From a virus, in the IMG/VR virus record IMGVR_UViG_3300041956_000313, positions 1-64,000 of that record: DNA of 64,000 bases, one strand, 5' to 3'. The translations under genes were made by a program, and so were the position numbers. The notes under the pieces are model-generated. The model had not been told where the DNA came from and did not search any database. It saw nothing but the letters and a program-made list of their open reading frames with translations. Of this stretch, positions 4,810 through 59,171 are shown in pieces; within the stretch, counting starts at the first letter, position 1; every line of letters begins with the position of its first letter.

Positions 4810-4849
4810 AACCCCGCACGACTAACCCTCGTGCGGGGTTTTCTTTTTT
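4810..4849 (+). terminator. intrinsic terminator
   Basis: AACCCCGCACGA-loop-TCGTGCGGGGTT followed by TTCTTTTTT. Confidence 0.85.
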
Positions 4850-4863
4850 CGGAGGAAAGAGAA

Positions 4864-17921: not shown

Positions 17922-19747
17922 AGATTACGTCCGTTCGTGCTCGCAACTTCCGGACGCTTGCCGACGTCCGGCTAGACCTAGACCGGCCGGCAGGTCTGTA
18001 CTTCATGACCGGCCGGAACCTAGACCGGCCGCGACTCGGGTCCAACGGTATCGGCAAATCCTCCCTGTTTAACGCGTTGTACTGGTCTCTGTACGGCGTT
18101 ACGACGGACGGCATGCGTGCGGAGGGGCTCTGCGGACCGGCCGGCTCAGCCTATTCTGCGATGGTTAAAATGCAGGTCGCAGAACGCACGGAGAAGGTTT
18201 ATAGGGGGTGGAATCCGAACCGGTTGCTCCGTGACGGCCGGCCGGTATCGGCCGTCTCCGACCTTGTGCGGCTGTCACCAGAGGAGTTTCAAGCGACTGT
18301 TCTGATGTGCCAGTCCGGTGAGATGCTCCTGGACTTCACACCAGCAAAGCGACTCGAACTGGTAGGCGCGTCGCTCAACCTAGACATCTGGTCTGAGCAC
18401 AGCAGAGCTGCGCAGCTCCGCGCCGCGAAACTGGCTGAGCAGCATGCACGCCTGGAAGAGTGGCGGGTCGGCAAAGAAGCCGTCATAACGGCACTGCGTG
18501 AGCTCGATGTGTCTAGCAAGCTGAAAGCTTGGGAGCGCGACCGAAAAAAGAATCTTCGGGCGATGAAGGCACGGCTGACTGATCAGAAGGCCGCACTCGC
18601 GACGCTCACCGCGGCCTTCAAGAAAGTCGTGAAGGAAAAAGAAGCTGTCGAGGAAAAAATCAAACGGCTAGCACCGACATCCGTGAGCGGACACGATGAC
18701 ACCGGAGACCGTGACAAGCAGCTTGCAGCGGTTACACGTGCGACAGTCGAGCTAGAGGCAATCAAGAAGCAACTAAAGCAGTTTTGTGTGTACGAGGATG
18801 GGCAGTGGCATGCGACTACTCATTGTGATGCATGTGGTTCTGACTTGACGCACAAGCAAGTTAAAAAACGAATCGAGATTCTGTTGGTGTTGTCTCGGGC
18901 GGCAATAGCAAAGAAGGATGAGGCGAGTCTCGTGCTAGAGACTGCTGACAAACGCCGTGAGCGCGACCGACGTGCAGAGGAACGCAAGGCAAACTTTCTA
19001 GCCGACCTTGAGCGCGAGAGGAAAGACGCTGGCGATCGTTCGTTAAATCTGATGTTCGAGATAAATCGAGTCACTACGCTGTGCAAAGACTTACGCTCGA
19101 ACATCGCGAAAGAGCGGCACGCAAAGAATCCGTACGCCGATCAGGAAGAGTCGCGACTGCGCAAGCTGCACATGGCACGAATACAGCTTGCGAACATCAA
19201 CGAAGAACGCGAATTTGCACATCGCCGGCACGATCGCGCCGAGTGGTGGGTACGTGGCTTCAAGGAAGTGCGTTACTACGTGCTGCAGGAAGCGCTTAAC
19301 GAGCTCACCGCGGTAACTCAGATGCACGCACAGCAGATGGGCATGAAGGGCTTCAACGTCGTATTCATCGCGGAGCGTGAGAACAAATCCGGCTCGACGT
19401 CGAATACATTCGACGTGCAGATTCACACGCCGTATCGCAAAGAGCCGATGCCGCTGAGGGCATTGTCAGGCGGTGAGCAGGCGCGACTCAGACTCGCGTC
19501 AGCATTCGCAGGCTCGGATTTGATACTGCGACGTCGCAACGTGCTGTGCAATCTCGAAGTGTACGACGAGCCGACACAGCATTTGTCACCGGAAGGCATT
19601 GAGGATGTGATCGGCATCTTGCGTAATCGAGCTCTCGTGTCCGGCCGGCAAATCTGGTTCGTTGATCATCACAGCATCAGCTCGGGCAGGTTCGATGACA
19701 TCGTATATCTAGAACTCAAAGACAACCAAACGAGGATCGTGACATGA
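17918..19747 (+). CDS. sbcC: SbcC/Rad50-like ATPase
   Basis: Walker A GSNGIGKS, coiled coils with CDAC Zn hook, LSGGE signature, VYDEP Walker B. Confidence 0.9.
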   Translation: MKITSVRARNFRTLADVRLDLDRPAGLYFMTGRNLDRPRLGSNGIGKSSLFNALYWSLYGVTTDGMRAEGLCGPAGSAYSAMVKMQVAERTEKVYRGWNPNRLLRDGRPVSAVSDLVRLSPEEFQATVLMCQSGEMLLDFTPAKRLELVGASLNLDIWSEHSRAAQLRAAKLAEQHARLEEWRVGKEAVITALRELDVSSKLKAWERDRKKNLRAMKARLTDQKAALATLTAAFKKVVKEKEAVEEKIKRLAPTSVSGHDDTGDRDKQLAAVTRATVELEAIKKQLKQFCVYEDGQWHATTHCDACGSDLTHKQVKKRIEILLVLSRAAIAKKDEASLVLETADKRRERDRRAEERKANFLADLERERKDAGDRSLNLMFEINRVTTLCKDLRSNIAKERHAKNPYADQEESRLRKLHMARIQLANINEEREFAHRRHDRAEWWVRGFKEVRYYVLQEALNELTAVTQMHAQQMGMKGFNVVFIAERENKSGSTSNTFDVQIHTPYRKEPMPLRALSGGEQARLRLASAFAGSDLILRRRNVLCNLEVYDEPTQHLSPEGIEDVIGILRNRALVSGRQIWFVDHHSISSGRFDDIVYLELKDNQTRIVT

Positions 19748-20472
19748 CGACGATTGCGTGGGACGGCAAGCTTCTCGCGGCGGATAGAATGTCGATTACC
19801 GGATATCTGAAACACCAATTGAACAAGCTTCACTATCTAGCGCGGCCGGGGCAGCAACTGCTGTTCGGCTCATCCGGTGATTACGATGCCGGACTAGCTG
19901 TGCTCAATTGGCTGAAGGAAGGCGGTGACTACACGACGGGCAAAGACTCGCCGTCACTTGAGCGCGAGGGCGCGTTCTCCGGCTTGTTGGTAGTTCTGTC
20001 GGCGGCGAGTTTGTCACCGCGGGTCTATCATCTGCATGAGAGATGCATCGGCGTGCCGATAGCGTCACTGCCGTTTTATGCGATCGGCTCCGGCCGCGAG
20101 TTCGCGATTGCGGCAATGAGGCTAGGACTGAATGCTCTGCAAGCGGTGCAAGTCGCTTCGGAGCTAGATCACGCGACGGGCAGTGGTCTTTCGTGGCGTG
20201 ATCTAGAAGGCAACTATGGCACTATGAGTGATGTGAGTGTCGAGTCCGGCCGTGTGTCACACATCACAGAGTCTGAGTTAGGCGCGCTCAAGGGTGCGTG
20301 GGAGAAAGAGTTAGAGGGCGGACATTTCGAGTGGGCTGAGTTTACCGCGTGGCTGCAGCGTGATCCGCAGTCGCACCGCTCGTTGCTAGCACTCTTGCAG
20401 CAGAACGCACCCGACCGCTTCGAGCGTTCGGAGTTGTGCGCTTGGCAGCAGAACAGCAGAACACATCCGTAG
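19744..20472 (+). CDS. Ntn-hydrolase, proteasome-beta/HslV-like protein
   Basis: MTTIAWDGKLLAADR (N-terminal Thr), YAIGSGREFAIAAM..G..A.QAV.VA.ELD. Confidence 0.75.
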   Translation: MTTIAWDGKLLAADRMSITGYLKHQLNKLHYLARPGQQLLFGSSGDYDAGLAVLNWLKEGGDYTTGKDSPSLEREGAFSGLLVVLSAASLSPRVYHLHERCIGVPIASLPFYAIGSGREFAIAAMRLGLNALQAVQVASELDHATGSGLSWRDLEGNYGTMSDVSVESGRVSHITESELGALKGAWEKELEGGHFEWAEFTAWLQRDPQSHRSLLALLQQNAPDRFERSELCAWQQNSRTHP

Positions 20473-20494: not shown

Positions 20495-20522
20495 AAAACG
20501 GGCCGCATCTGCGGCCCGTCTC
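20495..20522. terminator. hairpin terminator between convergent genes
   Basis: ACGGGCCGCA-TC-TGCGGCCCGT preceded by an A run (T tail on the minus strand). Confidence 0.75.
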
Positions 20523-20541: not shown

Positions 20542-21105
20542 TTACTTCTTCAGCATCCGGGTCGGGAACTGATTGAACAGCTTGCCGTGGACGGAGACGT
20601 TCACGATCATCTGAGTCTTCCACCGCTGTGTCTCACCGGCTGCAGTGACGACCGTCAGCACGCTGTGCCCCCATACGTGTGAGCCGGCGAGTTCTGCCGC
20701 GGTCACATCACCGACTTTCGAGATGAGTTTCAGGACAAACGCGTCGTACTCGACTGCCGCTTCGTCGCGCGCGATCTTCACGAAGCGCTCGACGCTGTCA
20801 GTATCGACTTCTACGCAGTAGTCGGCGCTCCGGAAGTCGACGAACTTGCCGTCAACGAACTTGTTGTCATTGAGGCCGCGCGTGAGCGAGTCATACAGCC
20901 TGCGCTTGCCCTGCGCGACGGCGAAATCTTTGCGTCCCATGCGGATGCTGTTAGCGCGCGGCGCTACGGCGTTGATGCGGCCGTCGACGTCAGCAAGCGC
21001 TTTGGTGATGTCGGCAACGACTTCGCGCGCGTGCCTCTCAGCGCGAGCAACCGCATCTGACTTGAGGGGCATCACAGCAACGTAAACCGGGTGAGTCGTG
21101 TTCAT
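20542..21105 (-). CDS. hypothetical protein (probably early)
   Basis: GGAGA RBS, coding-like codon use, ends at the terminator. Confidence 0.75.
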   Translation of the reverse strand: MNTTHPVYVAVMPLKSDAVARAERHAREVVADITKALADVDGRINAVAPRANSIRMGRKDFAVAQGKRRLYDSLTRGLNDNKFVDGKFVDFRSADYCVEVDTDSVERFVKIARDEAAVEYDAFVLKLISKVGDVTAAELAGSHVWGHSVLTVVTAAGETQRWKTQMIVNVSVHGKLFNQFPTRMLKK

Positions 21106-21303: not shown

Positions 21304-21683
21304 TTGCCTGCCCTCTGCGTTAGTGATTCGATGTGTCTAGATTAGCTATTTGCGGGCGTAGAGACAAGTACCAAAACGAATATTTTCGGGTAAATCACAG
21401 TATATTTTCGCTGCCAACGCTGACTCGAATGAAGTGCGTTACAACCAATTCTGAGGCTGTCAGTACCGAGCTCGTGCCGACCCGTCACCGTATATATCTG
21501 GTAACAAACGTGGTAGCAGAGCCCCTCAGAATTGGTTATAGAAGCATGTATTTTTTACAATACAACCGCACACAAATAGTGCGAAAATATCCTGAAAAAT
21601 AGTGCGAAATTGGTTGTATCTGTGCCCGTAGAACAGTTACTATGTGCACGTCGGATCAATCAACTAGTGCAGAGGGCAAGACA
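21304..21683. promoter_or_regulatory. AT-rich divergent promoter region with inverted and direct repeats
   Basis: + strand TTGTAT-N18-TACTAT at 21614-21643 with a similar minus-strand element; 14-bp inverted repeat 21443-21456/21524-21537; 13-bp direct repeat 21574/21597. Confidence 0.75.
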
Positions 21684-22431: not shown

Positions 22432-22462
22432 TACACGCGCACAGCGCGCTTCGAGTTGAGAG

Positions 22463-22493
22463 ACGGCCGGCTAATCACCGGCCGTTTTCTTTT
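22463..22493 (+). terminator. intrinsic terminator
   Basis: ACGGCCGG-CTAATCA-CCGGCCGT followed by TTTCTTTT. Confidence 0.85.
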
Positions 22494-22757
22494 GTGTGCG
22501 TATATCTGTGCATGTTCTACCAAATACTCAAATTGCGGTGTGACTCGCGTGTCACGAATCCAGTTGACGAGCACGACACTGTGCAGTGCTGTCATGAAGC
22601 GACGTTCAAGGGCAAAAGCTCTGAACCGGAATACGAAGCTATGCGTGCCGGCTGGCGTTGGGACTTGACGCGTCGATGTTGGTGTCCGAAGCATGCTCGT
22701 GCAGAGCTGCCGGAGACGTTCGTAAAACCGAAACTCAAGAGAAGGGAGAGAAGATGA
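22494..22757 (+). CDS. small Cys-rich hypothetical protein
   Basis: CDS..QCC..GW..WCPKH Zn-ribbon pattern; ATGA overlap with the next gene; start uncertain. Confidence 0.5.
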   Translation: MCVYLCMFYQILKLRCDSRVTNPVDEHDTVQCCHEATFKGKSSEPEYEAMRAGWRWDLTRRCWCPKHARAELPETFVKPKLKRRERR

Positions 22758-34897: not shown

Positions 34898-34916
34898 CTC
34901 TACACGGAGGTAAACG

Positions 34917-35342
34917 ATGAACATGAATAGAACTATAGAAATCGTGCGCACTCGCGGCCGTCGCTTGATGCTGCAGAACTCGGAGCGTTTCGGGTACGTG
35001 ACGAGAGAAGATATTTTGCGGTTCGCACAGGAAGGCAGATACGTTCGTGTGACGGATCGTGCCACAGGCGCTGACATCACGAACAATGTGCTGCTGCAGG
35101 CGATGTCATTGTCCGTGCTGGCCGACGAGTTCGACACGAAGCTTCTGCACGAGATCATTCGCAAGAGCCCAAAAGCTCTTGCGTTGGTGGCTGGCACAGC
35201 AGGCAAGCATGTGCGGCCGGTTGAAGAGAGGCAAATACAAGCGATAGGAGATTGCACTAATGCTGATACTGACACGCAGGACGGGCGAGACGGTGATGAT
35301 AGGCAACGAGGTCACCTTGACAGTGCTGGGAGTCAAGGGTAA
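34917..35342 (+). CDS. PhaR-like (PHA synthesis repressor) DNA-binding domain protein
   Basis: RRL..YVTREDI...[21 protein letters not shown] matches the PhaR pattern NRRLY..YITL.D....G..F.V.D..TGED.T..LLQ. Confidence 0.7.
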
Positions 35343-35493
35343 TCAGGTGCGCATCGGCATCAATGCGCCGAAGTCGGTGCCCGTGCATCGTGAGGAGATT
35401 TACGAGCGCATTCAGCGCGAGCTGGCGGGCGATGTGAACGGCAACAGACAGGAGGAACCGTGCCAGGTCAAACGACCTGAGTTTACTCGCTAG
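35260..35493 (+). CDS. csrA: carbon storage regulator CsrA/RsmA
   Basis: [43 protein letters not shown]. Confidence 0.97.
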
Positions 35494-35563
35494 AGGTCAA
35501 TCGAGTCTGAAACACGGACGGCCGAGACAGCATAGTCTTCTCGGCCGTCTTGCTGACAGGAGA

Positions 35564-39344: not shown

Positions 39345-39622
39345 ATACGGCCGAGGGTAACGTATGCACCTCGGCCGTTCTCTGTGTCACACGGACGGTG
39401 ACACCACCCACACTGAGATAGCCGATTACCAGCGCTCATATTCGCTGGCATGCGCGCTCTGTGTTCTGCTTGCCCGTAGAACAGTCAATAGAACAGTGAT
39501 ATCAAGCACATGCGTCCCGCGCGCCGTGGTAGGTGCACAACATGTGCACGTGTATAATTCTGGTTGCGAACGTCTGCATGTCGCGGACGTTTCTACGGGC
39601 AAACGAAAGAGGGCAAATAGCA
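39345..39622 (+). promoter_or_regulatory. intergenic control region: hairpins, TGCCCGTAGAA boxes, TATAAT
   Basis: two hairpins 39346-39404; box at 39471 (+) and 39591 (-); TATAAT at 39553. Confidence 0.6.
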
Positions 39623-49834: not shown

Positions 49835-50628
49835 CAATGGCTCTGAAATTCAGATACGAGAAGCAGGAAGATGTGCCGAAGGAGCACGAGACTCTTTACA
49901 AGGAAGTGAACGGTGCGTGGATTCTCGAAGTCGAGGGCGTCGTGCCGCTCGAACGTGCGAACGAACTCAGCTCGAAGGTGAACGAGTTTCGCAAGACGAA
50001 TGGCGAGCTCACGGCGAAGCTCGCAGCGTTCGATGGCAAGAAAGTGCTGACGGAGGAGGAGCACAAAGAGCTGATCGAAGCGAAGGAGAAGCTGGAGAAG
50101 GGTCACAAGCCGGAAGAGCTTGAGGCGCTCGTCGAGAAGCGCACTGCGAACATGCGCAAGGCGCACGCGTCTGAGCTTGCCTCTGCTCGTGCCATTGCCG
50201 AAGAGGCGACGACGAAGCACAAGAAGACCTTCCGCGAACTCGAAACTACGCGCGTGCAGGCCACGCTTGCTCAAGTGGTCAGCGAAGTCGGCACACCGGC
50301 GAAGGGGGCTCTGCAAGACATCAACTCGCGTGCTGCGGGGGTGTTTCGTCTGAACGATGACGGCAACATCGTCGCCATGAAGGACGATGGTGAGGAGGTC
50401 ATGGGCACGGATGGCAAACCGCTCACGATGAAAGAGTTTGTCACGAATCTGACGAAAGAGGCGCCGTATCTGTTCGAGCGCTCGAATGGCTCGGGCAGCA
50501 AGGGCCCCGGTGATCGCAGCAGCCGGTCGTCGACGCGCACGATTTCACGTGGGGACTCTGCTGGGTTCGGGCAGAATCTGGAGGCAATTGCGAAAGGAGA
50601 AGTGTCCGTCGACATGGAAGCAGACTGA
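49831..50628 (+). CDS. capsid scaffolding protein
   Basis: coiled coil, APYLF..S.GSG; lies before the capsid gene. Confidence 0.75.
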   Translation: MTMALKFRYEKQEDVPKEHETLYKEVNGAWILEVEGVVPLERANELSSKVNEFRKTNGELTAKLAAFDGKKVLTEEEHKELIEAKEKLEKGHKPEELEALVEKRTANMRKAHASELASARAIAEEATTKHKKTFRELETTRVQATLAQVVSEVGTPAKGALQDINSRAAGVFRLNDDGNIVAMKDDGEEVMGTDGKPLTMKEFVTNLTKEAPYLFERSNGSGSKGPGDRSSRSSTRTISRGDSAGFGQNLEAIAKGEVSVDMEAD

Positions 50629-50631
50629 CAC

Positions 50632-50814
50632 TTGCACCCGGTTCCATTGTGACTAGAATCCGTTTCTGGTAAAGCGAACCTTCAGGGCGAATCCCTCCGC
50701 AGAGTGTGAGGGGTTGATAGCTGAGAAACTCTCGACAAGGCACCGGCAGAGTCGGTGCCCATCGGGGAAGGTGCAGCAGCAATCAATTCATCAACTCTGT
50801 GAGGGGATTCGTTC
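50632..50814 (+). promoter_or_regulatory. putative promoter and structured leader of the major capsid gene
   Basis: TTGCAC-N16-TAGAAT; 50688-50705 pairs with 50794-50811 covering the RBS. Confidence 0.6.
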
Positions 50815-51975
50815 ATGGCCAATAATCTTGCCGTGGCAGTGCCGAAGATTCTGGCACGTGGTCTGATGGCGCTACGCTCCGAAACTGTCATGCCCGCGCT
50901 CGTGAACCGGGACTATGGCAATGAGGCCGCACAGCGAGGCACCGTCATCACCATTCCGATTCCGTCTGCGGTTGCAGTCCGCGACGTCGTTCCAGGTGTT
51001 ACGCCGGTGGCTGCACCGGATCAGGGTCCGACGCAGGCACTCGTGCCGCTCGATCAGTGGAAAGAAGCTCCGTTCTATCTGAATGACAAGGAGCTTCAAG
51101 AGATCAACGCGAGCGCGACGTTCATTCCGATGGAAACATCGGAGGCGATCAAGTCGCTGGCGGAAGTGATCAATGCCTTCATTCTTTCGAAGTACAAGGG
51201 TGTCTACGGGTACGCCGGCACTGCTGGCACGACTCCGTTCAACGCGACGCCTGCCAACCTCGACATCAGCTCGGCCACGGCTCTGCGCAAGGTTCTCAAC
51301 AACCAGCGCGCGCCGAAGCGTCCGCGCTATGCCGTGCTGGACCCGGACGCCGAAGCCAACGCACTGAATCAGCGTGCGTTCCAGGACTACAGCTGGGGCA
51401 ACACGACTGACGTGATTCGCGATGGTGAGATGCGTGAGACGCGCATGGGCTTCGGCTGGTTCATGGATCAGCAGGTCCCGACGCACACGGCCGGTACGCT
51501 GACGGGCACGATCAACGTCGCGGCGAACGCGGCCGCGGGCGTGTCGTCCGTCACCGCTGCAACGGACGGTGCCGAAGCGATCGCGCTGAAGGAAGGCGAC
51601 ATCATCACTTTCAGCAATCACACGCAGACGTATGTGGTGACTGCTGATGTGACGGCGGGCGCCTCGGTTGCGTCGACGGCGATTCCGATTGCGCCGGTGC
51701 TGCAGGTGGCGGTGACGACTGCCGCGACGATTGCAGTGAAGGCGACGCACGTCGTGAATCTCGGCTTCCACCGCGATGCTTTCGCGTTCGCGTCGCGTCC
51801 TCTGCAGGACGTCAACGGTCTCGGCAACCTCATCCTGAGCGCGGCCGACCCCATAACTGGTCTGTCACTGCGGCTCGAAATCTCGCGCCAGCACAAGCAG
51901 ACTGCGTGGTCGTTCGACATTCTCTACGGTGCCGCACTCGTGCGTCGCGAGCTCGCAGCACGCCTCGCTGGCTAA
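50815..51975 (+). CDS. major capsid protein (P22 coat-like, with insertion domain)
   Basis: LVNRDY..G..ITIP, NLGFHRDAFAFASRPL, FDILYG...R.ELA.R; very biased codons. Confidence 0.9.
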   Translation: MANNLAVAVPKILARGLMALRSETVMPALVNRDYGNEAAQRGTVITIPIPSAVAVRDVVPGVTPVAAPDQGPTQALVPLDQWKEAPFYLNDKELQEINASATFIPMETSEAIKSLAEVINAFILSKYKGVYGYAGTAGTTPFNATPANLDISSATALRKVLNNQRAPKRPRYAVLDPDAEANALNQRAFQDYSWGNTTDVIRDGEMRETRMGFGWFMDQQVPTHTAGTLTGTINVAANAAAGVSSVTAATDGAEAIALKEGDIITFSNHTQTYVVTADVTAGASVASTAIPIAPVLQVAVTTAATIAVKATHVVNLGFHRDAFAFASRPLQDVNGLGNLILSAADPITGLSLRLEISRQHKQTAWSFDILYGAALVRRELAARLAG

Positions 51976-52066
51976 GGCCGCAAGTCCCTCGCAAACCCCC
52001 GCATTGGGTCGGCACGGATGCTGACCCTGTGCACTTCTGAAAGAAAAGTTTCTTGGAGGTAGTTTC

Positions 52067-52690
52067 ATGAGTGTCCAGACGCTAGTAGAACAACACAAGG
52101 CCATTCGCAAGTCAGGCGTGCCGCTTCACGATCAGTTCGCAGCGCTCAGCCAGAACGAGCGAATGGCATTCGCGCAAGCGCTCGGCCAGACGCTTAACAT
52201 TCCCGTCGGCCGAGAAGCAGAAGCGCAGCCCGAGAACGCGCAGACGCTGCATATCTTGCAGTACATGACGCGACAGCCTCCGCCGCTGAAGAACCTCGCA
52301 CTGCTGGGCGTGCATCGTACGCAGTGCGTGTGGGTGAAGAAGGCGAGCGGCAAGATCGTGGAAGTTCCGGTCGATGCTTTCGACCCGGCCGTGCACGAGC
52401 TGTCGAAGAAGCAGCCGATTGAGGCACGTGCCTATATCGGCAAGGTCAAGAAGAAGATCAAGGAGTATGAGGAACACAAGGCCGCGAACGAAGTGGACGA
52501 CGGTGACGAGGAGTTCGACGACGAGGTGGATGAGGGTGATTCCGAGATTCTCGACCGGGACGAGCCGGCCGACTCGGACATCTCGGATGAAGATGATGAG
52601 GACGCAGGTGGCGAGACTCCGCCGCACTCCGTCACGCGCAAGCCGAAGACTTCGAAGAAGTCAAAGTTGAAGGCGCGCGGCCGCAGGTAA
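52067..52690 (+). CDS. hypothetical virion-associated protein with acidic tract and basic tail
   Basis: GGAGG RBS; FDPAVHEL motif; follows the capsid gene. Confidence 0.7.
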   Translation: MSVQTLVEQHKAIRKSGVPLHDQFAALSQNERMAFAQALGQTLNIPVGREAEAQPENAQTLHILQYMTRQPPPLKNLALLGVHRTQCVWVKKASGKIVEVPVDAFDPAVHELSKKQPIEARAYIGKVKKKIKEYEEHKAANEVDDGDEEFDDEVDEGDSEILDRDEPADSDISDEDDEDAGGETPPHSVTRKPKTSKKSKLKARGRR

Positions 52691-52701
52691 GGCAATCAGT
52701 C

Positions 52702-53226
52702 ATGGCACTCGTTCTCGTATCTACTCCGGGCGCGGCTAACGCGAACTCGTACACGTCTCTCGCAGAGGCAGAGGTGTATTTCGAGTCTCGTCCGTTCTCG
52801 GGCAAGTGGACGAGTGCCTCGACTGCTCAGAAAGAGGCCGCGTTGGTGTGGGCCACGCGGCTTCTTGATCGATCGATTACGTGGCAAGGGTCTCCGTACA
52901 CGCTGACACAGTCACTGCGATGGCCGCGTGTCGGTGCCGTCACGCTCGATGGCAACCTGTACAACTCCGACGTCATTCCACCGGAGTTGAAAGAAGCCAC
53001 CGCGGAACTCGCGCTCTGGCTGCTGACGAAGGATCGTACGGCGGAGACCGGCCGCGAGGGAATCAAGAAGTTTGCAGTCGGCACACTTGAGGTGGAGTTC
53101 GATTCGACGACGAATGCCTCTGTGATTCCTGACTCTGCCTTTCAGCTCATTGCACATCTAGGCAGTCTCGGGACAGTGGCTCAGAGTGCTGTCGGCATTC
53201 AGACTGTCAAGCTGCTACGGACGTGA
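52702..53226 (+). CDS. head-tail adaptor
   Basis: ANSYTSLAEA..YF, QSLRWPR, IPPELKEATAELA, VGTLEVEF. Confidence 0.8.
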   Translation: MALVLVSTPGAANANSYTSLAEAEVYFESRPFSGKWTSASTAQKEAALVWATRLLDRSITWQGSPYTLTQSLRWPRVGAVTLDGNLYNSDVIPPELKEATAELALWLLTKDRTAETGREGIKKFAVGTLEVEFDSTTNASVIPDSAFQLIAHLGSLGTVAQSAVGIQTVKLLRT

Positions 53227-53229
53227 GCC

Positions 53230-53631
53230 ATGAGCTTTCGCGAACTTGCCGCGCAGTTAGCCAGCACCGCGTTCACGGTTGCGGATGACATTCCTGAGTC
53301 GTGCTTGTACAAGCACGGTGGCTCATCTCGTCCCTACGATACGAAGTCAGGAAAAGTTCTGCAGTCATCGACTGCCGCAGAAAGCACTGTCAGCTTTATC
53401 TTCGGACCTGCGCAAGGTTTCGGCACGCCTGACGGTGACACGACTCAGTCAGACCACACAGGCGACTTGAGTGCGGTTGCTCAGGCTGCCGAATTCAATC
53501 AGACGCCGGCCGAGGGTGACGAGCTCGTGCGTGGCGTCGACGAGTATCGAGTCATTGCACTGAAGCCGGATGAGGCCGGTGCGACCTACACGTTCTTGAT
53601 TGCGCGCATCGGTGGCGGAATCGAGCCATGA
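53230..53631 (+). CDS. head closure / head-tail joining protein
   Basis: position; YD..SG, P.EGD..YRV..PD. Confidence 0.65.
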   Translation: MSFRELAAQLASTAFTVADDIPESCLYKHGGSSRPYDTKSGKVLQSSTAAESTVSFIFGPAQGFGTPDGDTTQSDHTGDLSAVAQAAEFNQTPAEGDELVRGVDEYRVIALKPDEAGATYTFLIARIGGGIEP

Positions 53632-54059
53632 TATCTCTCGACACAAGAGACTTCGAGGCCGACCTTCTTGCCTTTGCTCGCAAGGTAGAGCTCGGGCCGG
53701 GCATCGTCACTCGTAAACTCGTGCTCGACATCTTCGGAGACTTGCTGGCATCGACTCCGGTTGATACGGGCAGGGCACGCAGTAACTGGAAAGTGTCGGT
53801 GGGCGCACCTGACTTCACTCAACTTGAGTCTCTCGGAGATGGCCCCGGAGCGGAGTCTATTCAGTTTCTGTCAGCGCAGGCTCGCTTGTATCGGTATCGA
53901 GCTAACCGCCCTGTCTACATCACGAACGGATTGCCCTACATAGAGAGGCTTAACGAGGGCTGGTCGCAGCAAGCACCGGCAGGATTTGTTGAGGCCGCGA
54001 TCTTGCGCAACGTGCGGCCGATCATCGCCGCCAGTGATTTTCTCAGTGGTGGTGTATGA
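53628..54059 (+). CDS. HK97 gp10-like tail completion/neck protein
   Basis: TPVDTGRARSNW, YI.RLNEG.SQQAPAGFV. Confidence 0.85.
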   Translation: MISLDTRDFEADLLAFARKVELGPGIVTRKLVLDIFGDLLASTPVDTGRARSNWKVSVGAPDFTQLESLGDGPGAESIQFLSAQARLYRYRANRPVYITNGLPYIERLNEGWSQQAPAGFVEAAILRNVRPIIAASDFLSGGV

Positions 54060-54517
54060 ATGAGGCTGAGGTACTGCACGCGATTGAAGATCGAATGCGA
54101 ACTCGATGGCCGTTAGTGTGGGACCGACAACCGCCTATCACGATCATCTTCGAAGACACTCAGACGCGTGTGCCGCTGCCGCCGTTCGTGCGGCTGTATG
54201 TCGATGCTATCGGAGACAAGGACGAGGCCTACGCAGGCAGCCGAATCGATTATTCGAAGCTGGGGATTATCACTGCGCAGATTTTCACGAAGAAGGGAGA
54301 GGGCACGACTCTCGGCCGTGAGATTGGCGCAGCGATTGAAACGATCTTTGCTGGGAAGAGCTTTGGCTCAGATGTCGCTAAGCCGATGTCGGGCATCATC
54401 TGCCGCGAGTGCACGGTGACTGTCATCCGGGGTCGTGACCGGGCGAATGCTGAGTTGTCGCAAGTCAATGCACGCGTGCCTTACGAATATCACCAATCGG
54501 TAGAAACCGGAGACTAA
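54056..54517 (+). CDS. tail terminator
   Basis: position; GII..QIF...G.G, QVN..VPY. Confidence 0.7.
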   Translation: MNEAEVLHAIEDRMRTRWPLVWDRQPPITIIFEDTQTRVPLPPFVRLYVDAIGDKDEAYAGSRIDYSKLGIITAQIFTKKGEGTTLGREIGAAIETIFAGKSFGSDVAKPMSGIICRECTVTVIRGRDRANAELSQVNARVPYEYHQSVETGD

Positions 54518-54519
54518 AC

Positions 54520-55695
54520 ATGGCAGACAGTTCACGCGTCCAGCTGGCTTACGTCAAAGAGTCGACACTGGGCGTCACACCGGCAAGTGCATTGAAGGCT
54601 TTGCGATACACGCGTGAGACACTGGGCCGTCGTTTCGAGTCGGTTCAGTCTGACGAGGTTCGTGAAGATCGTCAGGTGGTAGACATCACACGTGTTGGTG
54701 CGAACGCTCAGGGCGGTATCGAGATTGAAATCTCGCACACTACCTACAATGAGTTCCTCGAGGCTGCGCTCGGGAATCTGATGAGCGCCCCGGTGGAAGT
54801 GATTGCAACTGACATCGCTGCGAACGGTGGCGGTACACAGACACTCACGCGTCCTGCTAGCATGCCGATTTATCAGGTCGGACAGTTCGTGTGGGTGTCG
54901 GGTTTCTCGAACGCTGCGAATAACGGCTACTTTGAAGTCGAGACGTCGAGTGGCACGACTCTCAAGCTGAAGAACGGTCGCGTTGCGCTCGTCAACGAGT
55001 CTGCCGGCCAGAGCGTGAAGATTTCGGCGTCATCAATCGTCAATGGCTCGACGCCGATGTCATTCACGATCGAGAAGAAGTTTGCTGACCTCAACGGTGG
55101 GTCCGGCATATTCTACCCGTTTACGGGCATGCGCCTGAACACGTTCGAGATGCGCATTGCTTCGCGCGCTAAGGTCACAGGCAGCATGGACTTCTTCGGT
55201 GGCGGCGGCCGGCTGCTGACTGCGACAGTCGGCACAGGCGCCTACACTGCTGCCACGACTACTTCGACGCTGAACGCATCAAACAACGTCGGACAAGTAC
55301 TTGAGAATGGTTCGTCACTAGGCGCCGGAGCCTTCGTGAAACAGATGACTATTCGCATTGCCAACAACCTGCGTCCGCAAGATGCGGTAGGTAGTGTGAA
55401 TCCGATCGGCATCGGTTACGGCAGTCTCGTCATCACAGGAACGATGCAGATTTATTTCGTCAGTGAAGCGCTGTTCAACCGGTTCCTCGATGACATCGAT
55501 TCGAGCTTTGCTCTGGTCATCGGCTCGGGCGGCACTGAGAACGACGCCTATGCGATCACGATGCCCAAGATAGAGTTCACGAACGGTGACGTGCTGGGAA
55601 CGGGCAACAACGACGACGTTCTCTGTAACATGGAGTATCAGGCGAAGTTGTCACCCACGCACGGCTACTCGATGAGGATCGACAGTTTTTCGTGA
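54520..55695 (+). CDS. major tail tube protein
   Basis: QLAYVKEST.GVTP, SDEVR.DR, SFTIEK.F.D, ITGT..YF. Confidence 0.88.
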   Translation: MADSSRVQLAYVKESTLGVTPASALKALRYTRETLGRRFESVQSDEVREDRQVVDITRVGANAQGGIEIEISHTTYNEFLEAALGNLMSAPVEVIATDIAANGGGTQTLTRPASMPIYQVGQFVWVSGFSNAANNGYFEVETSSGTTLKLKNGRVALVNESAGQSVKISASSIVNGSTPMSFTIEKKFADLNGGSGIFYPFTGMRLNTFEMRIASRAKVTGSMDFFGGGGRLLTATVGTGAYTAATTTSTLNASNNVGQVLENGSSLGAGAFVKQMTIRIANNLRPQDAVGSVNPIGIGYGSLVITGTMQIYFVSEALFNRFLDDIDSSFALVIGSGGTENDAYAITMPKIEFTNGDVLGTGNNDDVLCNMEYQAKLSPTHGYSMRIDSFS

Positions 55696-55790
55696 GGCTG
55701 TGTTGGCGTAAACCGACTGTGCCTTTTCGTGTTGCAGTTTTCACGGACAGCGTGGAGTGCCTCCTCACGACTGACGGGTACAGTCTTTTC

Positions 55791-55823
55791 AAGGGCAGTC
55801 TGCAATCGGACTGCCCTTCTTTT
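55791..55823 (+). terminator. intrinsic terminator after the tail tube gene
   Basis: AAGGGCAGTCTG-CAAT-CGGACTGCCCTT followed by CTTTT. Confidence 0.8.
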
Positions 55824-55840
55824 CAAACAGGAGAAGTCAG

Positions 55841-56095
55841 ATGACGACACGAGTGAAGGTGTCTGCGGATCACGTCGACTCACGCGTTGCAGTTCGTGTG
55901 CGTTCCGTGAGTCGCAATCACAGTCAGGTGTACAGTGAGCAAGTCATTCGCACGGACGAGCCCGATGTGACTTTCGAAGTGCACAGCGGTGCCGTCCTCA
56001 TCGTCGATGAGGTGCCGATTGAGTCGGTGCCCGTGAAGACGAAGGAACAGACTGCGGAGGATGCAAAGCGCGCGCGCAAGAATCTCGGCGTCTGA
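55841..56095 (+). CDS. hypothetical protein
   Basis: ACAGGAG RBS. Confidence 0.6.
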   Translation: MTTRVKVSADHVDSRVAVRVRSVSRNHSQVYSEQVIRTDEPDVTFEVHSGAVLIVDEVPIESVPVKTKEQTAEDAKRARKNLGV

Positions 56096-56118
56096 GGTTT
56101 CTACAACACAAAAAGTGA

Positions 56119-56568
56119 GTGAGGCATGACATGGAACTGATGAATTACGCGATTGACACGAAGAAACAGGTGGAGGGCTCGTGGGTGATGCTCAGCCCCG
56201 GCACGGAGTTTCTTCTCGGCCGCATGAACTCCGAGCACTGGTTCATGACCCTCGACAGAATCCGTGACCCACACATCAAGCAACTGCCGCGCGGCGTCGC
56301 GTTGCCTGAGGAGAAGGGTGCGGAGCTGTTCAACGAGGCACTCGTCGAGTGCATTCTGTTGGGCTGGCGCGGCAAGTTCACGCTCAATGGCAAAGAGATG
56401 CCTGAGTACTCAAAAGAGCTTGCGCTGAGGATTCTCAACACGAAAGAACTCGCACCCTTCCGAGCAATGATCGTCGAGCAATCAGCGATGCTGAACAATT
56501 TCGCGCTCGATGATTTCGAGTACCTGGAGGGAAACTTGTTGAGCTCATCCGGTTCGACGCCTCAATAA
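56119..56568 (+). CDS. tail assembly chaperone (gpG-like)
   Basis: position; EG.W, ILLGW.G, YS.E.A; slippery site near the 3' end. Confidence 0.8.
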   Translation: MRHDMELMNYAIDTKKQVEGSWVMLSPGTEFLLGRMNSEHWFMTLDRIRDPHIKQLPRGVALPEEKGAELFNEALVECILLGWRGKFTLNGKEMPEYSKELALRILNTKELAPFRAMIVEQSAMLNNFALDDFEYLEGNLLSSSGSTPQ

Positions 56569-56891
56569 CGGATGAGCTCAGAGACATTTACCTAGCTGAT
56601 GAAGAAGAGTCACCGGGCTCGTCACCGCTGTCAAACAGACCACGTAAAGAGGCCGATGTCGAAGATTTGTGTGCGCAGTTTTACGACCTGATGAATCTGA
56701 GGTCGGGAGACTCGTGGATAACACTGCACGACATCAAGGCTTATATGGAGCTGTACTCAGCTAGACACCCCGAAGACTTTCCCCGCCTGATGTTGAGCGC
56801 GCAACGCGCTCATGTGAGAGCCAAAGCTGCCGCGAAGCAGAAGCTGCAAGCAGCACAGGAACGTGCCAACGCTCTGAAACGAGAGCGTTAG
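56529..56891 (+). CDS. gpT-like extension reached by -1 frameshift at G GGA AAC
   Basis: XXXYYYZ heptamer 56529-56535 in the correct phase; -1 frame open to 56891. Confidence 0.8.
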   Translation, partial: GKLVELIRFDASITDELRDIYLADEEESPGSSPLSNRPRKEADVEDLCAQFYDLMNLRSGDSWITLHDIKAYMELYSARHPEDFPRLMLSAQRAHVRAKAAAKQKLQAAQERANALKRER

Positions 56892-57005
56892 TTGCGTAAA
56901 GCCGCGTGCCATGGATGGTGCGCGGCGATCTTGATGCTAGTGCGGCATGCACACGGCTCACCTCACGATCGCCGCTCATAGCCCGTTACCTTTTGAGGTG
57001 TAGTG

Positions 57006-59171
57006 ATGTCTGCACAGTCCGGTATTGCAATCAACGTTGACCCGCGTCCGGCTCAGTCTGGTGCGGCGCAAGTCAACCGCGCCATATTGTCGATTCGAGA
57101 CAATGTGGTTGGTCTGCGGCAAGACATCGACCGTCAATCGCGGCAGATGCGAGAAGACTTTCAGCAGATGGCCACGACTGTTAATCAGTCAGCCAATCAG
57201 ACCACGGCTGCTCTGCAGAGAAACACGGCCGGTATCAATTCGGTGATGGGCAGCTGGCGGCAACTTCGCAGCGTCATACCTATTGCAATCATCGCCGGAC
57301 TCACGCGCGAGCTCATCCAGCAAGCAGATGCTTACACGAAAGTTCAGTCACAGTTGCGACTGGTAGTAGAAGACCAGAGGCAGCTTGCTGCAGTCTCAGA
57401 TTCGGTTTACAGGATTGCGCAGGACACACGCAGTGCGTTAGGTCCGACTGCGGAACTATATGCGCGTCTGTCACGCTCGACACGTGATCTAGGACTAGAA
57501 CAGCAGCGTGTTGCAAACCTGACGACAACGATCAACCAAGCCATTCAAGTCGGTGGCTCGACGGCGAATGAGGCAGCCTTCGGCGTCATTCAGTTTGGTC
57601 AGGCACTCGCGTCAGGTGCACTGCGCGGTGACGAACTTCGGTCGGTGATGGAACAGATGCCTCGCCTGTCGCGCGCGATTGCCGAAGGCATGGGTGTAAG
57701 TATCGGTGAGCTGCGCAGGCTGGGTGAGGCCGGTGAGCTCACGACTGGCAGACTGATTGCTGCCCTTGAAGATGCAGCACCGAAGATCGCGGCTGAATAT
57801 TCAAAGATGACGCCGACGATTGGCTCTGCCTTTACGGTGCTCGGCAATTCGGTGACGCGGTTCATAGGCGAGCTGAATCGTGCAACCGGAGCAGGCGGGC
57901 GATTCAGTGAGATGCTCACGGGCGCTGCCAGTGGCGTCGACAAGATGACTGAAGGCATCAAGGGCGTGAATGTCGAGATGGTTCGGTACAACGCCAACCT
58001 TGAGAAATCGAAAGAGTTTTGGTCGTCGGGAGGAATCACCGGACTCATACCTGGAGCCTTCAAAGTAGGGCAGAGTATAGGTGACTCTATTTCGGGTGCG
58101 CTTCAGGGCCCCGGCCCACCGTTAGGCGGCCCGCTTGCTGATCCTGTGAGCGCAGCTCTGCGCGGCCGCGGAGCTTCATTGCTGCAGCCGATAGACACAC
58201 GTGCGATTGGGCAGACTGCGCGCATTCCGTCAATGAACTTGCTGACGGCCGAAGACCTGCGACGTCTGCGTGAGAGGCAGGAAGAGGAAGACTTCGAGAA
58301 CTTCATCAGCAATGTCGGGCGCAATTCAGCGGCGCAACGTCGTGCCGGCATCGGTACGAACGTCGGTCGGACAATCAACCCTGACGACACCACTCGAATT
58401 CGTTCAAGCACGGGTGGTGCGAAAGAGATTTTTGACGAAAGCATCGTCAAGAGAGTTGACGAGACGGTGCGCAGCACCGAGGAGAACATCCGGAACATTG
58501 AGCACACCACCGAGACGTCTGCGGAGTCTATGCGCAATCACTATGCGCAGTTCTTCGATTACGCGAAGTTTGCATTTGACGAGCTCGACAATAGCAGCAG
58601 CACGTTCATGACGAGCTTCTCGGAAGGCTTCGCGCAAATGGTTGCGTCCGGCAAGTTTGATTTCCGCAGTCTGGCGCAGGCAATCATCGCAGACCTCATC
58701 CGGATTCAAGTGCGTGCCATTGTCGTGCGCACTATCTTGTCTTTCTTCGGCGGCAGTTCTGGTGCAACGAGTGCAACGAGTCTGAGTGGGTCGTCCGGAG
58801 TCGGTGCGTTGAATGGCTCGACCGTTGGGTATGCTGCGCGCGGCTCCAGCTCATTGCGTGAAAACACGATCGTAGGTGAAGAGGGCATGGAATTGCTGCA
58901 GTCAAGGAACAATGCCGGCGCGCGCATCATGAACAACCGGGACACACAGCGTCTTTTGCGTGACATGAATGGCCGTCGTGTCGACGTCGAGTCAGGCAGC
59001 AGCGGAAGCGGTGGTGGCAACACCTACATTTCAATTGAGCAGACTAATCAAATCAGCACTGTGGGTGTCACTTCCGATGAGCTCGATGCGAAGTTGGGTT
59101 ACACGACACAGCAAGCTGTGAAGGCCGCTGTCGCTAAGGTCCAGGTGCTGAACTTGAACGGTCGTCTGTAA
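57006..59171 (+). CDS. tape measure protein
   Basis: AD.YT...L, AELYARL, IQFGQALASG.LRGDELRSVMEQMP. Confidence 0.93.
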   Translation: MSAQSGIAINVDPRPAQSGAAQVNRAILSIRDNVVGLRQDIDRQSRQMREDFQQMATTVNQSANQTTAALQRNTAGINSVMGSWRQLRSVIPIAIIAGLTRELIQQADAYTKVQSQLRLVVEDQRQLAAVSDSVYRIAQDTRSALGPTAELYARLSRSTRDLGLEQQRVANLTTTINQAIQVGGSTANEAAFGVIQFGQALASGALRGDELRSVMEQMPRLSRAIAEGMGVSIGELRRLGEAGELTTGRLIAALEDAAPKIAAEYSKMTPTIGSAFTVLGNSVTRFIGELNRATGAGGRFSEMLTGAASGVDKMTEGIKGVNVEMVRYNANLEKSKEFWSSGGITGLIPGAFKVGQSIGDSISGALQGPGPPLGGPLADPVSAALRGRGASLLQPIDTRAIGQTARIPSMNLLTAEDLRRLRERQEEEDFENFISNVGRNSAAQRRAGIGTNVGRTINPDDTTRIRSSTGGAKEIFDESIVKRVDETVRSTEENIRNIEHTTETSAESMRNHYAQFFDYAKFAFDELDNSSSTFMTSFSEGFAQMVASGKFDFRSLAQAIIADLIRIQVRAIVVRTILSFFGGSSGATSATSLSGSSGVGALNGSTVGYAARGSSSLRENTIVGEEGMELLQSRNNAGARIMNNRDTQRLLRDMNGRRVDVESGSSGSGGGNTYISIEQTNQISTVGVTSDELDAKLGYTTQQAVKAAVAKVQVLNLNGRL

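Follow-up and report, generated by a model that had tools for sequence, protein, structure and literature searches.

Behind the capsid gene and ahead of the tape measure gene of the uncultured phage in IMG/VR virus record IMGVR_UViG_3300041956_000313, the late operon carries two strong RNA hairpins, each of which presents at its apex the core of the optimal binding site of the RNA-binding regulators CsrA and RsmE, and the same phage encodes a csrA gene of its own. The record comprises 92,726 base pairs (bp) and is rated 100% complete; the window analysed here is its first 64 kb, and the + strand holds nearly all genes of the phage. It is well supported that both structures (hairpins 1 and 2) are sense-strand boundary stem-loops of the late operon, located after the capsid and the chaperone G/GT genes. 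We favour the reading that their apexes also dock CsrA, be it that of the phage, that of the host or both, with a confidence that falls slightly short of even. The two hairpins are a well-defined, testable lead rather than a demonstrated circuit.

Two late-operon hairpins and a csrA gene

The original prediction had described CsrA-binding hairpins in the late-operon spacers of a csrA-encoding phage. Its hairpin sequences and coordinates were exact, the apical CANGGANG was confirmed, and PHROGs matches placed hairpin 1 after the capsid gene and hairpin 2 before the tape measure gene (Table 1). The csrA gene was borne out by a PF02599 match, and both loops agree with the optimal RsmE/CsrA core as it is quoted in PMC6849547 and PMC5864733.

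Hairpin 1 starts 26-30 nucleotides (nt) beyond the stop codon of the major capsid gene and consists of a 9-bp stem, including one G.U pair, and a lower 4-bp extension. Folding yielded a free energy (dG) of -22.0 kcal/mol and a z-score of -6.1 against shuffled sequences. Hairpin 2 (-20.9 kcal/mol, z -3.7) begins 10 nt past the stop codon of G/GT (56889-91) and leaves 80 nt up to the ATG of the tape measure gene (57006); its stem of 11 bp includes a tandem G.U pair. In the minimum-energy and centroid folds of both hairpins the GGA is unpaired and forms part of a YGGA tetraloop (CGGA at 52015-18 and UGGA at 56912-15), which is closed by an A-U and then a C-G pair, and the apex reads CANGGANG. In hairpin 1, this apex is CACGGAUG, with CACGGATG at 52013; in hairpin 2, it is CAUGGAUG, with CATGGATG at 56910. 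The common build comprises a lower stem, a G.U wobble, a 3-bp apical helix of the type (G/C)CA..UG(C/G) and the tetraloop, and the stems are otherwise unrelated despite the exact CA-NGGA-UG apex in both. With the G.U pairs just under the apical helix, the sense RNA of both hairpins gains about 6 kcal/mol in stability over the antisense folds (-16.0 kcal/mol for hairpin 1 and -15.2 kcal/mol for hairpin 2), which makes both of them RNA elements belonging to the late transcript.

The optimal RsmE/CsrA site has been given as (A/U)CANGGANG(U/A) (Schubert et al. 2007, as cited in PMC6849547 and PMC5864733). Its core is present in both hairpins with paired flanking bases, and its outer positions are not matched, the flanks being G..C in hairpin 1 and C..G in hairpin 2 with the pairing kept. 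Judged by sequence and predicted structure, both apexes show what is central to a CsrA/RsmE site, not its outer flank identities. The consensus selected in vitro for E. coli CsrA by systematic evolution of ligands by exponential enrichment (SELEX) is RUACARGGAUGU. In the work of Schubert et al., the bound RNA reportedly shows an ANGGAN loop above a 3-bp stem. An A-U closing pair, which permits opening to an ANGGAN hexaloop, occurs in only 10% of hairpins, and this weak pair, like the wobble beneath the apical helix of 3 bp, would be well suited to presenting such a loop.

In a sequence comparison of the csrA product with E. coli CsrA, identity over residues 1-55 is about 84%. Residues 2-7 read LILTRR and residues 40-47 VPVHREEI (42-47, VHREEI), with S41P as the single change; both segments have been reported as important for RNA binding (PMC5864733). 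On this comparison, the RNA-binding regions are essentially intact and the protein is a near-canonical CsrA. The gene is carried by 90 GenBank phage records and was found in about 1.2% of the phages surveyed by Sobrero and Valverde (2020, PMC7366521).

Ahead of csrA lies an open reading frame (ORF) that resembles PhaR and overlaps the csrA start. Its ribosome-binding site (RBS), CACGGAGG at 34903, places an exact CANGGANG over the Shine-Dalgarno sequence. This arrangement hints at, and would be compatible with, autoregulation, yet the site simply contains GGAGG too. A second CACGGACG occurs 20 nt 3' of the csrA stop codon (GGA at 35516). We rejected it as a typical CsrA site because the GGA is tied up in base pairs of a 12-bp stem.

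Table 1. Features of the late region and of the csrA locus (positions refer to the window)
Feature	Position	Strand	Remarks
PhaR-like ORF	34917-35342		overlaps csrA start by 83 nt; N-terminal motif of the polyhydroxybutyrate/polyhydroxyalkanoate (PHB/PHA) regulator type, judged by eye
csrA	35260-35493	+	77 amino acids (aa); PF02599, 89.6 bits; phrog_9500
Hairpin 3	39384-39404	+	7-bp stem, heptaloop ACGGACG
Pre-capsid intergenic hairpin	50739-50759	+	AGA triloop, no GGA
Major head protein gene	50815-51975	+	phrog_283, E 7.5e-75; directly 5' of hairpin 1; stop codon 51973-75
Hairpin 1	core 52006-52027, extended 52001-52032	+	GGGTCGGCA-CGGA-TGCTGACCC
Shine-Dalgarno sequence and start codon of 207-aa gene	52055-52069	+	GGAGG (GGA 52055-57), ATG (52067); 3' of hairpin 1
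Hairpin after tail-tube-like gene	55791-55818	+	loop CAAT, CUUUUC tail; canonical intrinsic terminator
Tail assembly chaperone G	56131-56568	+	PHROGs match
Chaperone -1 frameshift extension T	frame open 56514-56891	+	canonical slippery heptamer GGGAAAC at 56529-56535 (G GGA AAC), near end of G
Hairpin 2	56901-56926	+	GCCGCGTGCCA-TGGA-TGGTGCGCGGC
Tape measure protein gene	57006-59171	+	phrog_3519, E 2.2e-90; 3' of hairpin 2

Frequency of the apex in this and other genomes

Counts of the bare motif carry no information: the + strand has 49 copies of CANGGANG and the - strand 9, and of the former about 41 fall within genes, where they encode, in frame, the pairs Lys-Asp, Thr-Asp or Met-Asp/Glu. 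The strand excess was therefore rejected as evidence and is a codon-usage effect. The hairpin census was restricted to stems of at least 7 bp with a dG of -12 or lower. In the whole genome 60 hairpins pass this cut-off, 18 of which are intergenic.

Eleven csrA-less relatives (662 kb, both strands) yielded 853 hairpins. Six of these have an NGGA tetraloop, none of which is closed by CA..UG, and a single hairpin has an equivalent apex, a C-AUGGAC-G hexaloop. When the csrA-less relatives and other csrA-carrying phages are taken together, about 1,200 strong hairpins include no CA-NGGA-UG and one equivalent hexaloop. An earlier 479-kb sample, which overlaps the 662-kb records, contained an NGGA tetraloop in 1 of 280 hairpins, and GGA ranked 50th among the 64 loop trinucleotides. 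Under an independence model, the probability is 1.6e-4 for a single hairpin and 2e-6 to 4e-5 for two or more such apexes. At the empirical rate of about 1/853, the probability of two is about 2e-4 among the 18 intergenic hairpins and about 2e-3 among the full set of 60, and for NGGA tetraloops alone it is 0.007-0.07. We read these data as indicating that two strong intergenic hairpins with the complete consensus at their tips are unlikely by chance, and that the signal is real, not overwhelming.

A third, similar hairpin had also been predicted (hairpin 3). Its sequence and position were exact, but the structure is unconvincing: it is weak (dG -9.6, z -0.7) and has a competing fold, its unpaired apical GGA is not robust, and a far stronger hairpin at 39347-39379 adjoins it. 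Hairpin 3 was therefore rejected as a discrete element.

Candidate roles at the late-operon boundaries

Boundary stem-loops are common in phages, and it is well supported that they lower downstream expression or guard abundant upstream mRNA from 3' decay. It is also well supported that hairpins 1 and 2 follow genes whose products are in high demand (capsid, chaperone) and precede genes of lower demand, the tape measure protein being required in few copies. Their position puts them in the familiar class of post-capsid stem-loops, though they are not canonical intrinsic terminators. No U-tract follows either hairpin (tails UGUGCACUUC and GAUCUUGAUG) and neither was called by terminator prediction, so that we rejected this assignment.

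If CsrA docks on the apexes, the consequences would differ between the two sites. At hairpin 1, one face of a CsrA dimer might bind the loop GGA and the other the Shine-Dalgarno GGA at 52055, and such a clamp would reduce how strongly the 207-aa gene next to the capsid gene is translated. The two GGA are 39 nt apart, and a CsrA dimer can bridge GGA sites at distances of 10-63 nt (PMC10746276), which makes a two-site clamp plausible. In the predicted fold, the Shine-Dalgarno sequence of the 207-aa gene is paired with an upstream ACUUCU. Hairpin 2 has no Shine-Dalgarno partner, and bound CsrA would instead alter read-through or the stability of the segment ahead of the tape measure gene, or the hairpin might act as a decoy. 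The only candidate for a second GGA near hairpin 2 is an AGGAA at 56856-60, inside the upstream coding sequence. We consider it possible, with somewhat less than even confidence, that this lytic phage has put optimal CsrA sites on its own late operon and that CsrA of the phage or the host tunes late structural output or is timed by it. The structures, their positions, the exact match to the consensus, the intact csrA gene and the rarity of such apexes are shown here; CsrA binding in vivo and all of these downstream effects are what we infer.

Several observations weigh against a role of CsrA. The hypothesis was framed after the data had been seen, though the consensus itself comes from outside data. 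The enrichment test put forward in the original prediction, GGA in intergenic hairpin loops, was marginal or null (p 0.03-0.3, depending on the energy cut-off), and what signal there was is due entirely to hairpins 1 and 2, which are the only consensus-apex hairpins in the genome. In short hairpins, GGA is not enriched in loops (34% of its occurrences fall in a loop, compared with 26-33% for other trinucleotides), and its density in the genome is equal in intergenic and coding DNA (15.1 vs 15.2 per kb). Comparable hairpins might have been expected in other csrA-carrying phages, and none of the 87 intergenic hairpins of six such phages (phi297, F116, PSTCR8lys, VvAW1, Vibrio 431E46.1 and D65) has a consensus apex; 5 of them have GGA in the loop and 1 has an NGGA tetraloop. 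No GGA occurs between hairpin 2 and the tape measure start codon, and the Shine-Dalgarno sequence of that gene, GAGGTG, is free of GGA. The other late boundary hairpins (50739, 55791 and, in the genome, 65408) have the loops AGA, CAAT and AGA, none with GGA. Moreover, long GC-rich stems of 9-11 bp near an upstream stop codon look like terminators or stabilisers, not like translational operators.

The comparison with relatives points in the same direction. A post-capsid hairpin (dG -16 or stronger, at most 60 nt from the stop codon) was present in 21 of 27 distinct lineages of capsid relatives, and the background rate of such hairpins is about 0.1 per 170 nt. These lineages are almost all csrA-less, and their loops are unrelated (TCGC, AATT, CAGCA, TCCG, GTAAAA, TTCG, CTCG, ACTT, ATCC, TCAC, ACT and others). 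Only one contains GGA (CGAAGGA, in L005), and the record in question has no csrA. The nearest relative (L055, a 1.6-kb metagenomic contig with 68% capsid aa identity) has a 14-bp stem with the loop CTAACC at the same post-capsid place. Among ten long relative records, nine were without a CsrA match and the tenth gave a 25-bit match below the 27-bit cut-off. Since the equivalents in relatives, almost all of them csrA-less, carry unrelated loops, post-capsid hairpins exist and sit there without CsrA, and the post-capsid stem-loop is a lineage-wide feature that is independent of CsrA. For the tape measure boundary, a strong hairpin 5' of the gene was seen in only 2 of 7 tape measure relatives, which are too few and too distant to carry weight.

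This comparison has a limited reach. The phage stands apart in sequence space: capsid identity to the best relatives is 56% in IMG/VR and 68% in metagenomes; similar DNA among GenBank phages was confined to a 200-nt capsid stretch, and an exact-sequence search with hairpin 1 gave no match. Among GenBank phages, IMG/VR capsid and tape measure relatives and metagenomes, no relative above 68% capsid aa identity was found in which conservation of the apex could be set against covariation of the stem, and this, too, counts against the CsrA reading. At an identity of 68% or lower, differing loops would not speak to recent selection.

These findings lend weight to an alternative, according to which both hairpins are ordinary intercistronic stem-loops, acting as partial terminators or 3' exonuclease barriers that set the expression ratios of capsid to downstream genes and of chaperone to tape measure protein, with a coincidental GGA apex and no role of CsrA. 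We give this account a serious but less than even chance. Besides the hairpins of L055 and the 21 lineages and the null or marginal enrichment tests, it draws on the strong terminator directly after the capsid gene in T7 and LUZ100 (PMC10134795) and on the fact that both hairpins hug the upstream stop codon. It is harder to reconcile with two exact 8-of-8 apexes with the rare A-U closure, given their low empirical chance, in one of the roughly 1% of phages with csrA (PMC7366521), and with the missing U-tracts in a phage that has U-tract terminators elsewhere. A different use of the same apexes would be that of a sponge or timer, in which the abundant late transcript titrates CsrA of the phage or the host late in infection and relieves CsrA control, and is itself unregulated. 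The sites do lie on what is presumably the most abundant late mRNA segment, the capsid 3' end, and hairpin 2, like a decoy, is without an RBS partner. The known sponges CsrB, RsmZ and RsmY, however, have many clustered GGA hairpins, whereas two sites 4.9 kb apart are present here. No sponge-like GGA cluster exists in the genome: in intergenic regions the density stays at or below 2.8 GGA per 100 nt, and it is coding DNA that holds the 200-nt windows richest in GGA. Searches of the window and of the remaining genome brought no Rfam family up to its gathering score, and when 50600-57100 was scanned permissively, no Csr/Rsm small RNA was matched. A phage that both adds and sponges CsrA also requires an extra timing assumption, and we consider this option improbable.

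Finally, the apex may be read by another factor, for instance an RNase, an antiterminator of the phage or a different RNA-binding protein, and its likeness to a CsrA site be accidental. Hairpins 1 and 2 do have a specific architecture in common, the late hairpins 50739 and 65408 share another apex, GC-AGA-G after CCGCAGAGTG, so that apex classes may exist, and hammerhead-like processing elements also occur in the genome. An arbitrary motif would, however, rarely coincide with the 8-nt CsrA consensus, and we know of no candidate factor for apex recognition other than CsrA; this explanation appears slightly more improbable still. We thus retain, with the reserve expressed above, boundary stem-loops with a CsrA-docking apex as the favoured reading. 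If it is true, a phage-borne CsrA would for the first time have an RNA target that its own phage genome encodes; no report of such targets was found in the literature searched. Use of the hairpins by CsrA would place a known mechanism in a new setting, the phage's own late mRNA, and binding would mean that phage CsrA acts on phage mRNAs, beyond host physiology. If CsrA does not bind, the hairpins are one further case of the well-known post-capsid stem-loop.

Other structured elements were seen in the course of this analysis. The related csrA-carrying Vibrio phages 431E46.1 (L128:411-432) and D65 (record 21591-21612; L134:1591-1612) have a common intergenic hairpin, GCCGGGGC-GAGGAU-GCCCCGGU, with GGA in a hexaloop. 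One of the two tape measure relatives with a strong upstream hairpin (L114, 35% identical, a 19.6-kb csrA-less fragment) has a hairpin of -22.5 kcal/mol with the loop CAGGACA at about 2890-2925, 45 nt 5' of its tape measure ORF start. Canonical U-tract terminators of the present genome lie at 55791, 4810, 22460 and 76625. Those at 4810-4850, 22460-22500 and 76625-76665 (genome) have the common tail GTTTTCTTTT. Two of them have loops similar to each other, CTAACCC and CTAATCA, and the post-capsid loop of L055 is CTAACC. The segments 50699-50759 and, in the genome, 65375-65432 have a common layout, with CCGCAGAGTG about 45 nt 5' of a strong hairpin with the apex GC-AGA-G, which may be a late promoter or processing motif; GCAGAG has 10 copies in 8.5 kb of intergenic DNA and 59 genome-wide. 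A perfect 9-bp GC-rich hairpin at 20498-20519 (-19.1 kcal/mol) separates two convergent genes, 19744-20472 (+) and 20542-21105 (-), and is probably a bidirectional terminator; the gene at 20542-21105 is one of just two that are placed with confidence on the minus strand. Beyond the window, at 79.8-84.8 kb of the genome (L141:1802-6810), a repeated intergenic element contains a hammerhead core, CUGAUGAG...GGACGAAAC. Six Rfam hammerhead matches there (E 9e-5 to 0.18) all fall short of the gathering score, the best with 35.2 bits vs 48.5, and the hairpins with 7-bp stems and 4-nt loops in this region belong to the hammerhead-like elements.

Comparison with known systems

In the glgC and pgaA leaders, which are controlled by CsrA, a distal GGA hairpin is combined with a GGA that overlaps the Shine-Dalgarno sequence. 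The CsrA-controlled yqjD leader is organized in the same way (PMC10746276). Hairpin 1 and the GGAGG 39 nt downstream fit this two-site bridging geometry, but hairpin 1 lies inside a polycistronic late phage mRNA and not in a 5' leader, and hairpin 2 is without a second site.

The hairpin at the hcnA RBS (UUCACGGAUGAA; Schubert et al. 2007, quoted in PMC6849547 and PMC5864733) has a core identical to that of hairpin 1. The phage apexes resemble the optimal RsmE/CsrA site in the 8-mer itself, in the unpaired apical GGA and in flanking bases that form the closing helix. They differ from it in their long (9-13 and 11 bp), GC-rich stems and in the outer flanks; they are located just 3' of a stop codon and not over an RBS.

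Phage- and plasmid-borne csrA genes have been described before (PMC7366521), and a functional screen published in 2025 stated that csrA's role in the life cycle of phages had previously been untested (PMC11879866). In that screen, knock-down of the csrA gene of phage PTXU04 (gp28) gave a small-plaque phenotype and nothing more was found. Like those genes, csrA of the present phage is near-canonical by sequence, but for those genes RNA targets within the genome of the phage have not been reported, unlike the candidate sites described here.

The terminators that follow the capsid gene in T7 (T-phi) and LUZ100 (PMC10134795) occupy the same position as hairpin 1, and their implied role is to set the ratio of capsid to downstream expression. 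Hairpins 1 and 2 differ from these terminators in that they are without a U-tract and that their loops bear the consensus of a regulator.

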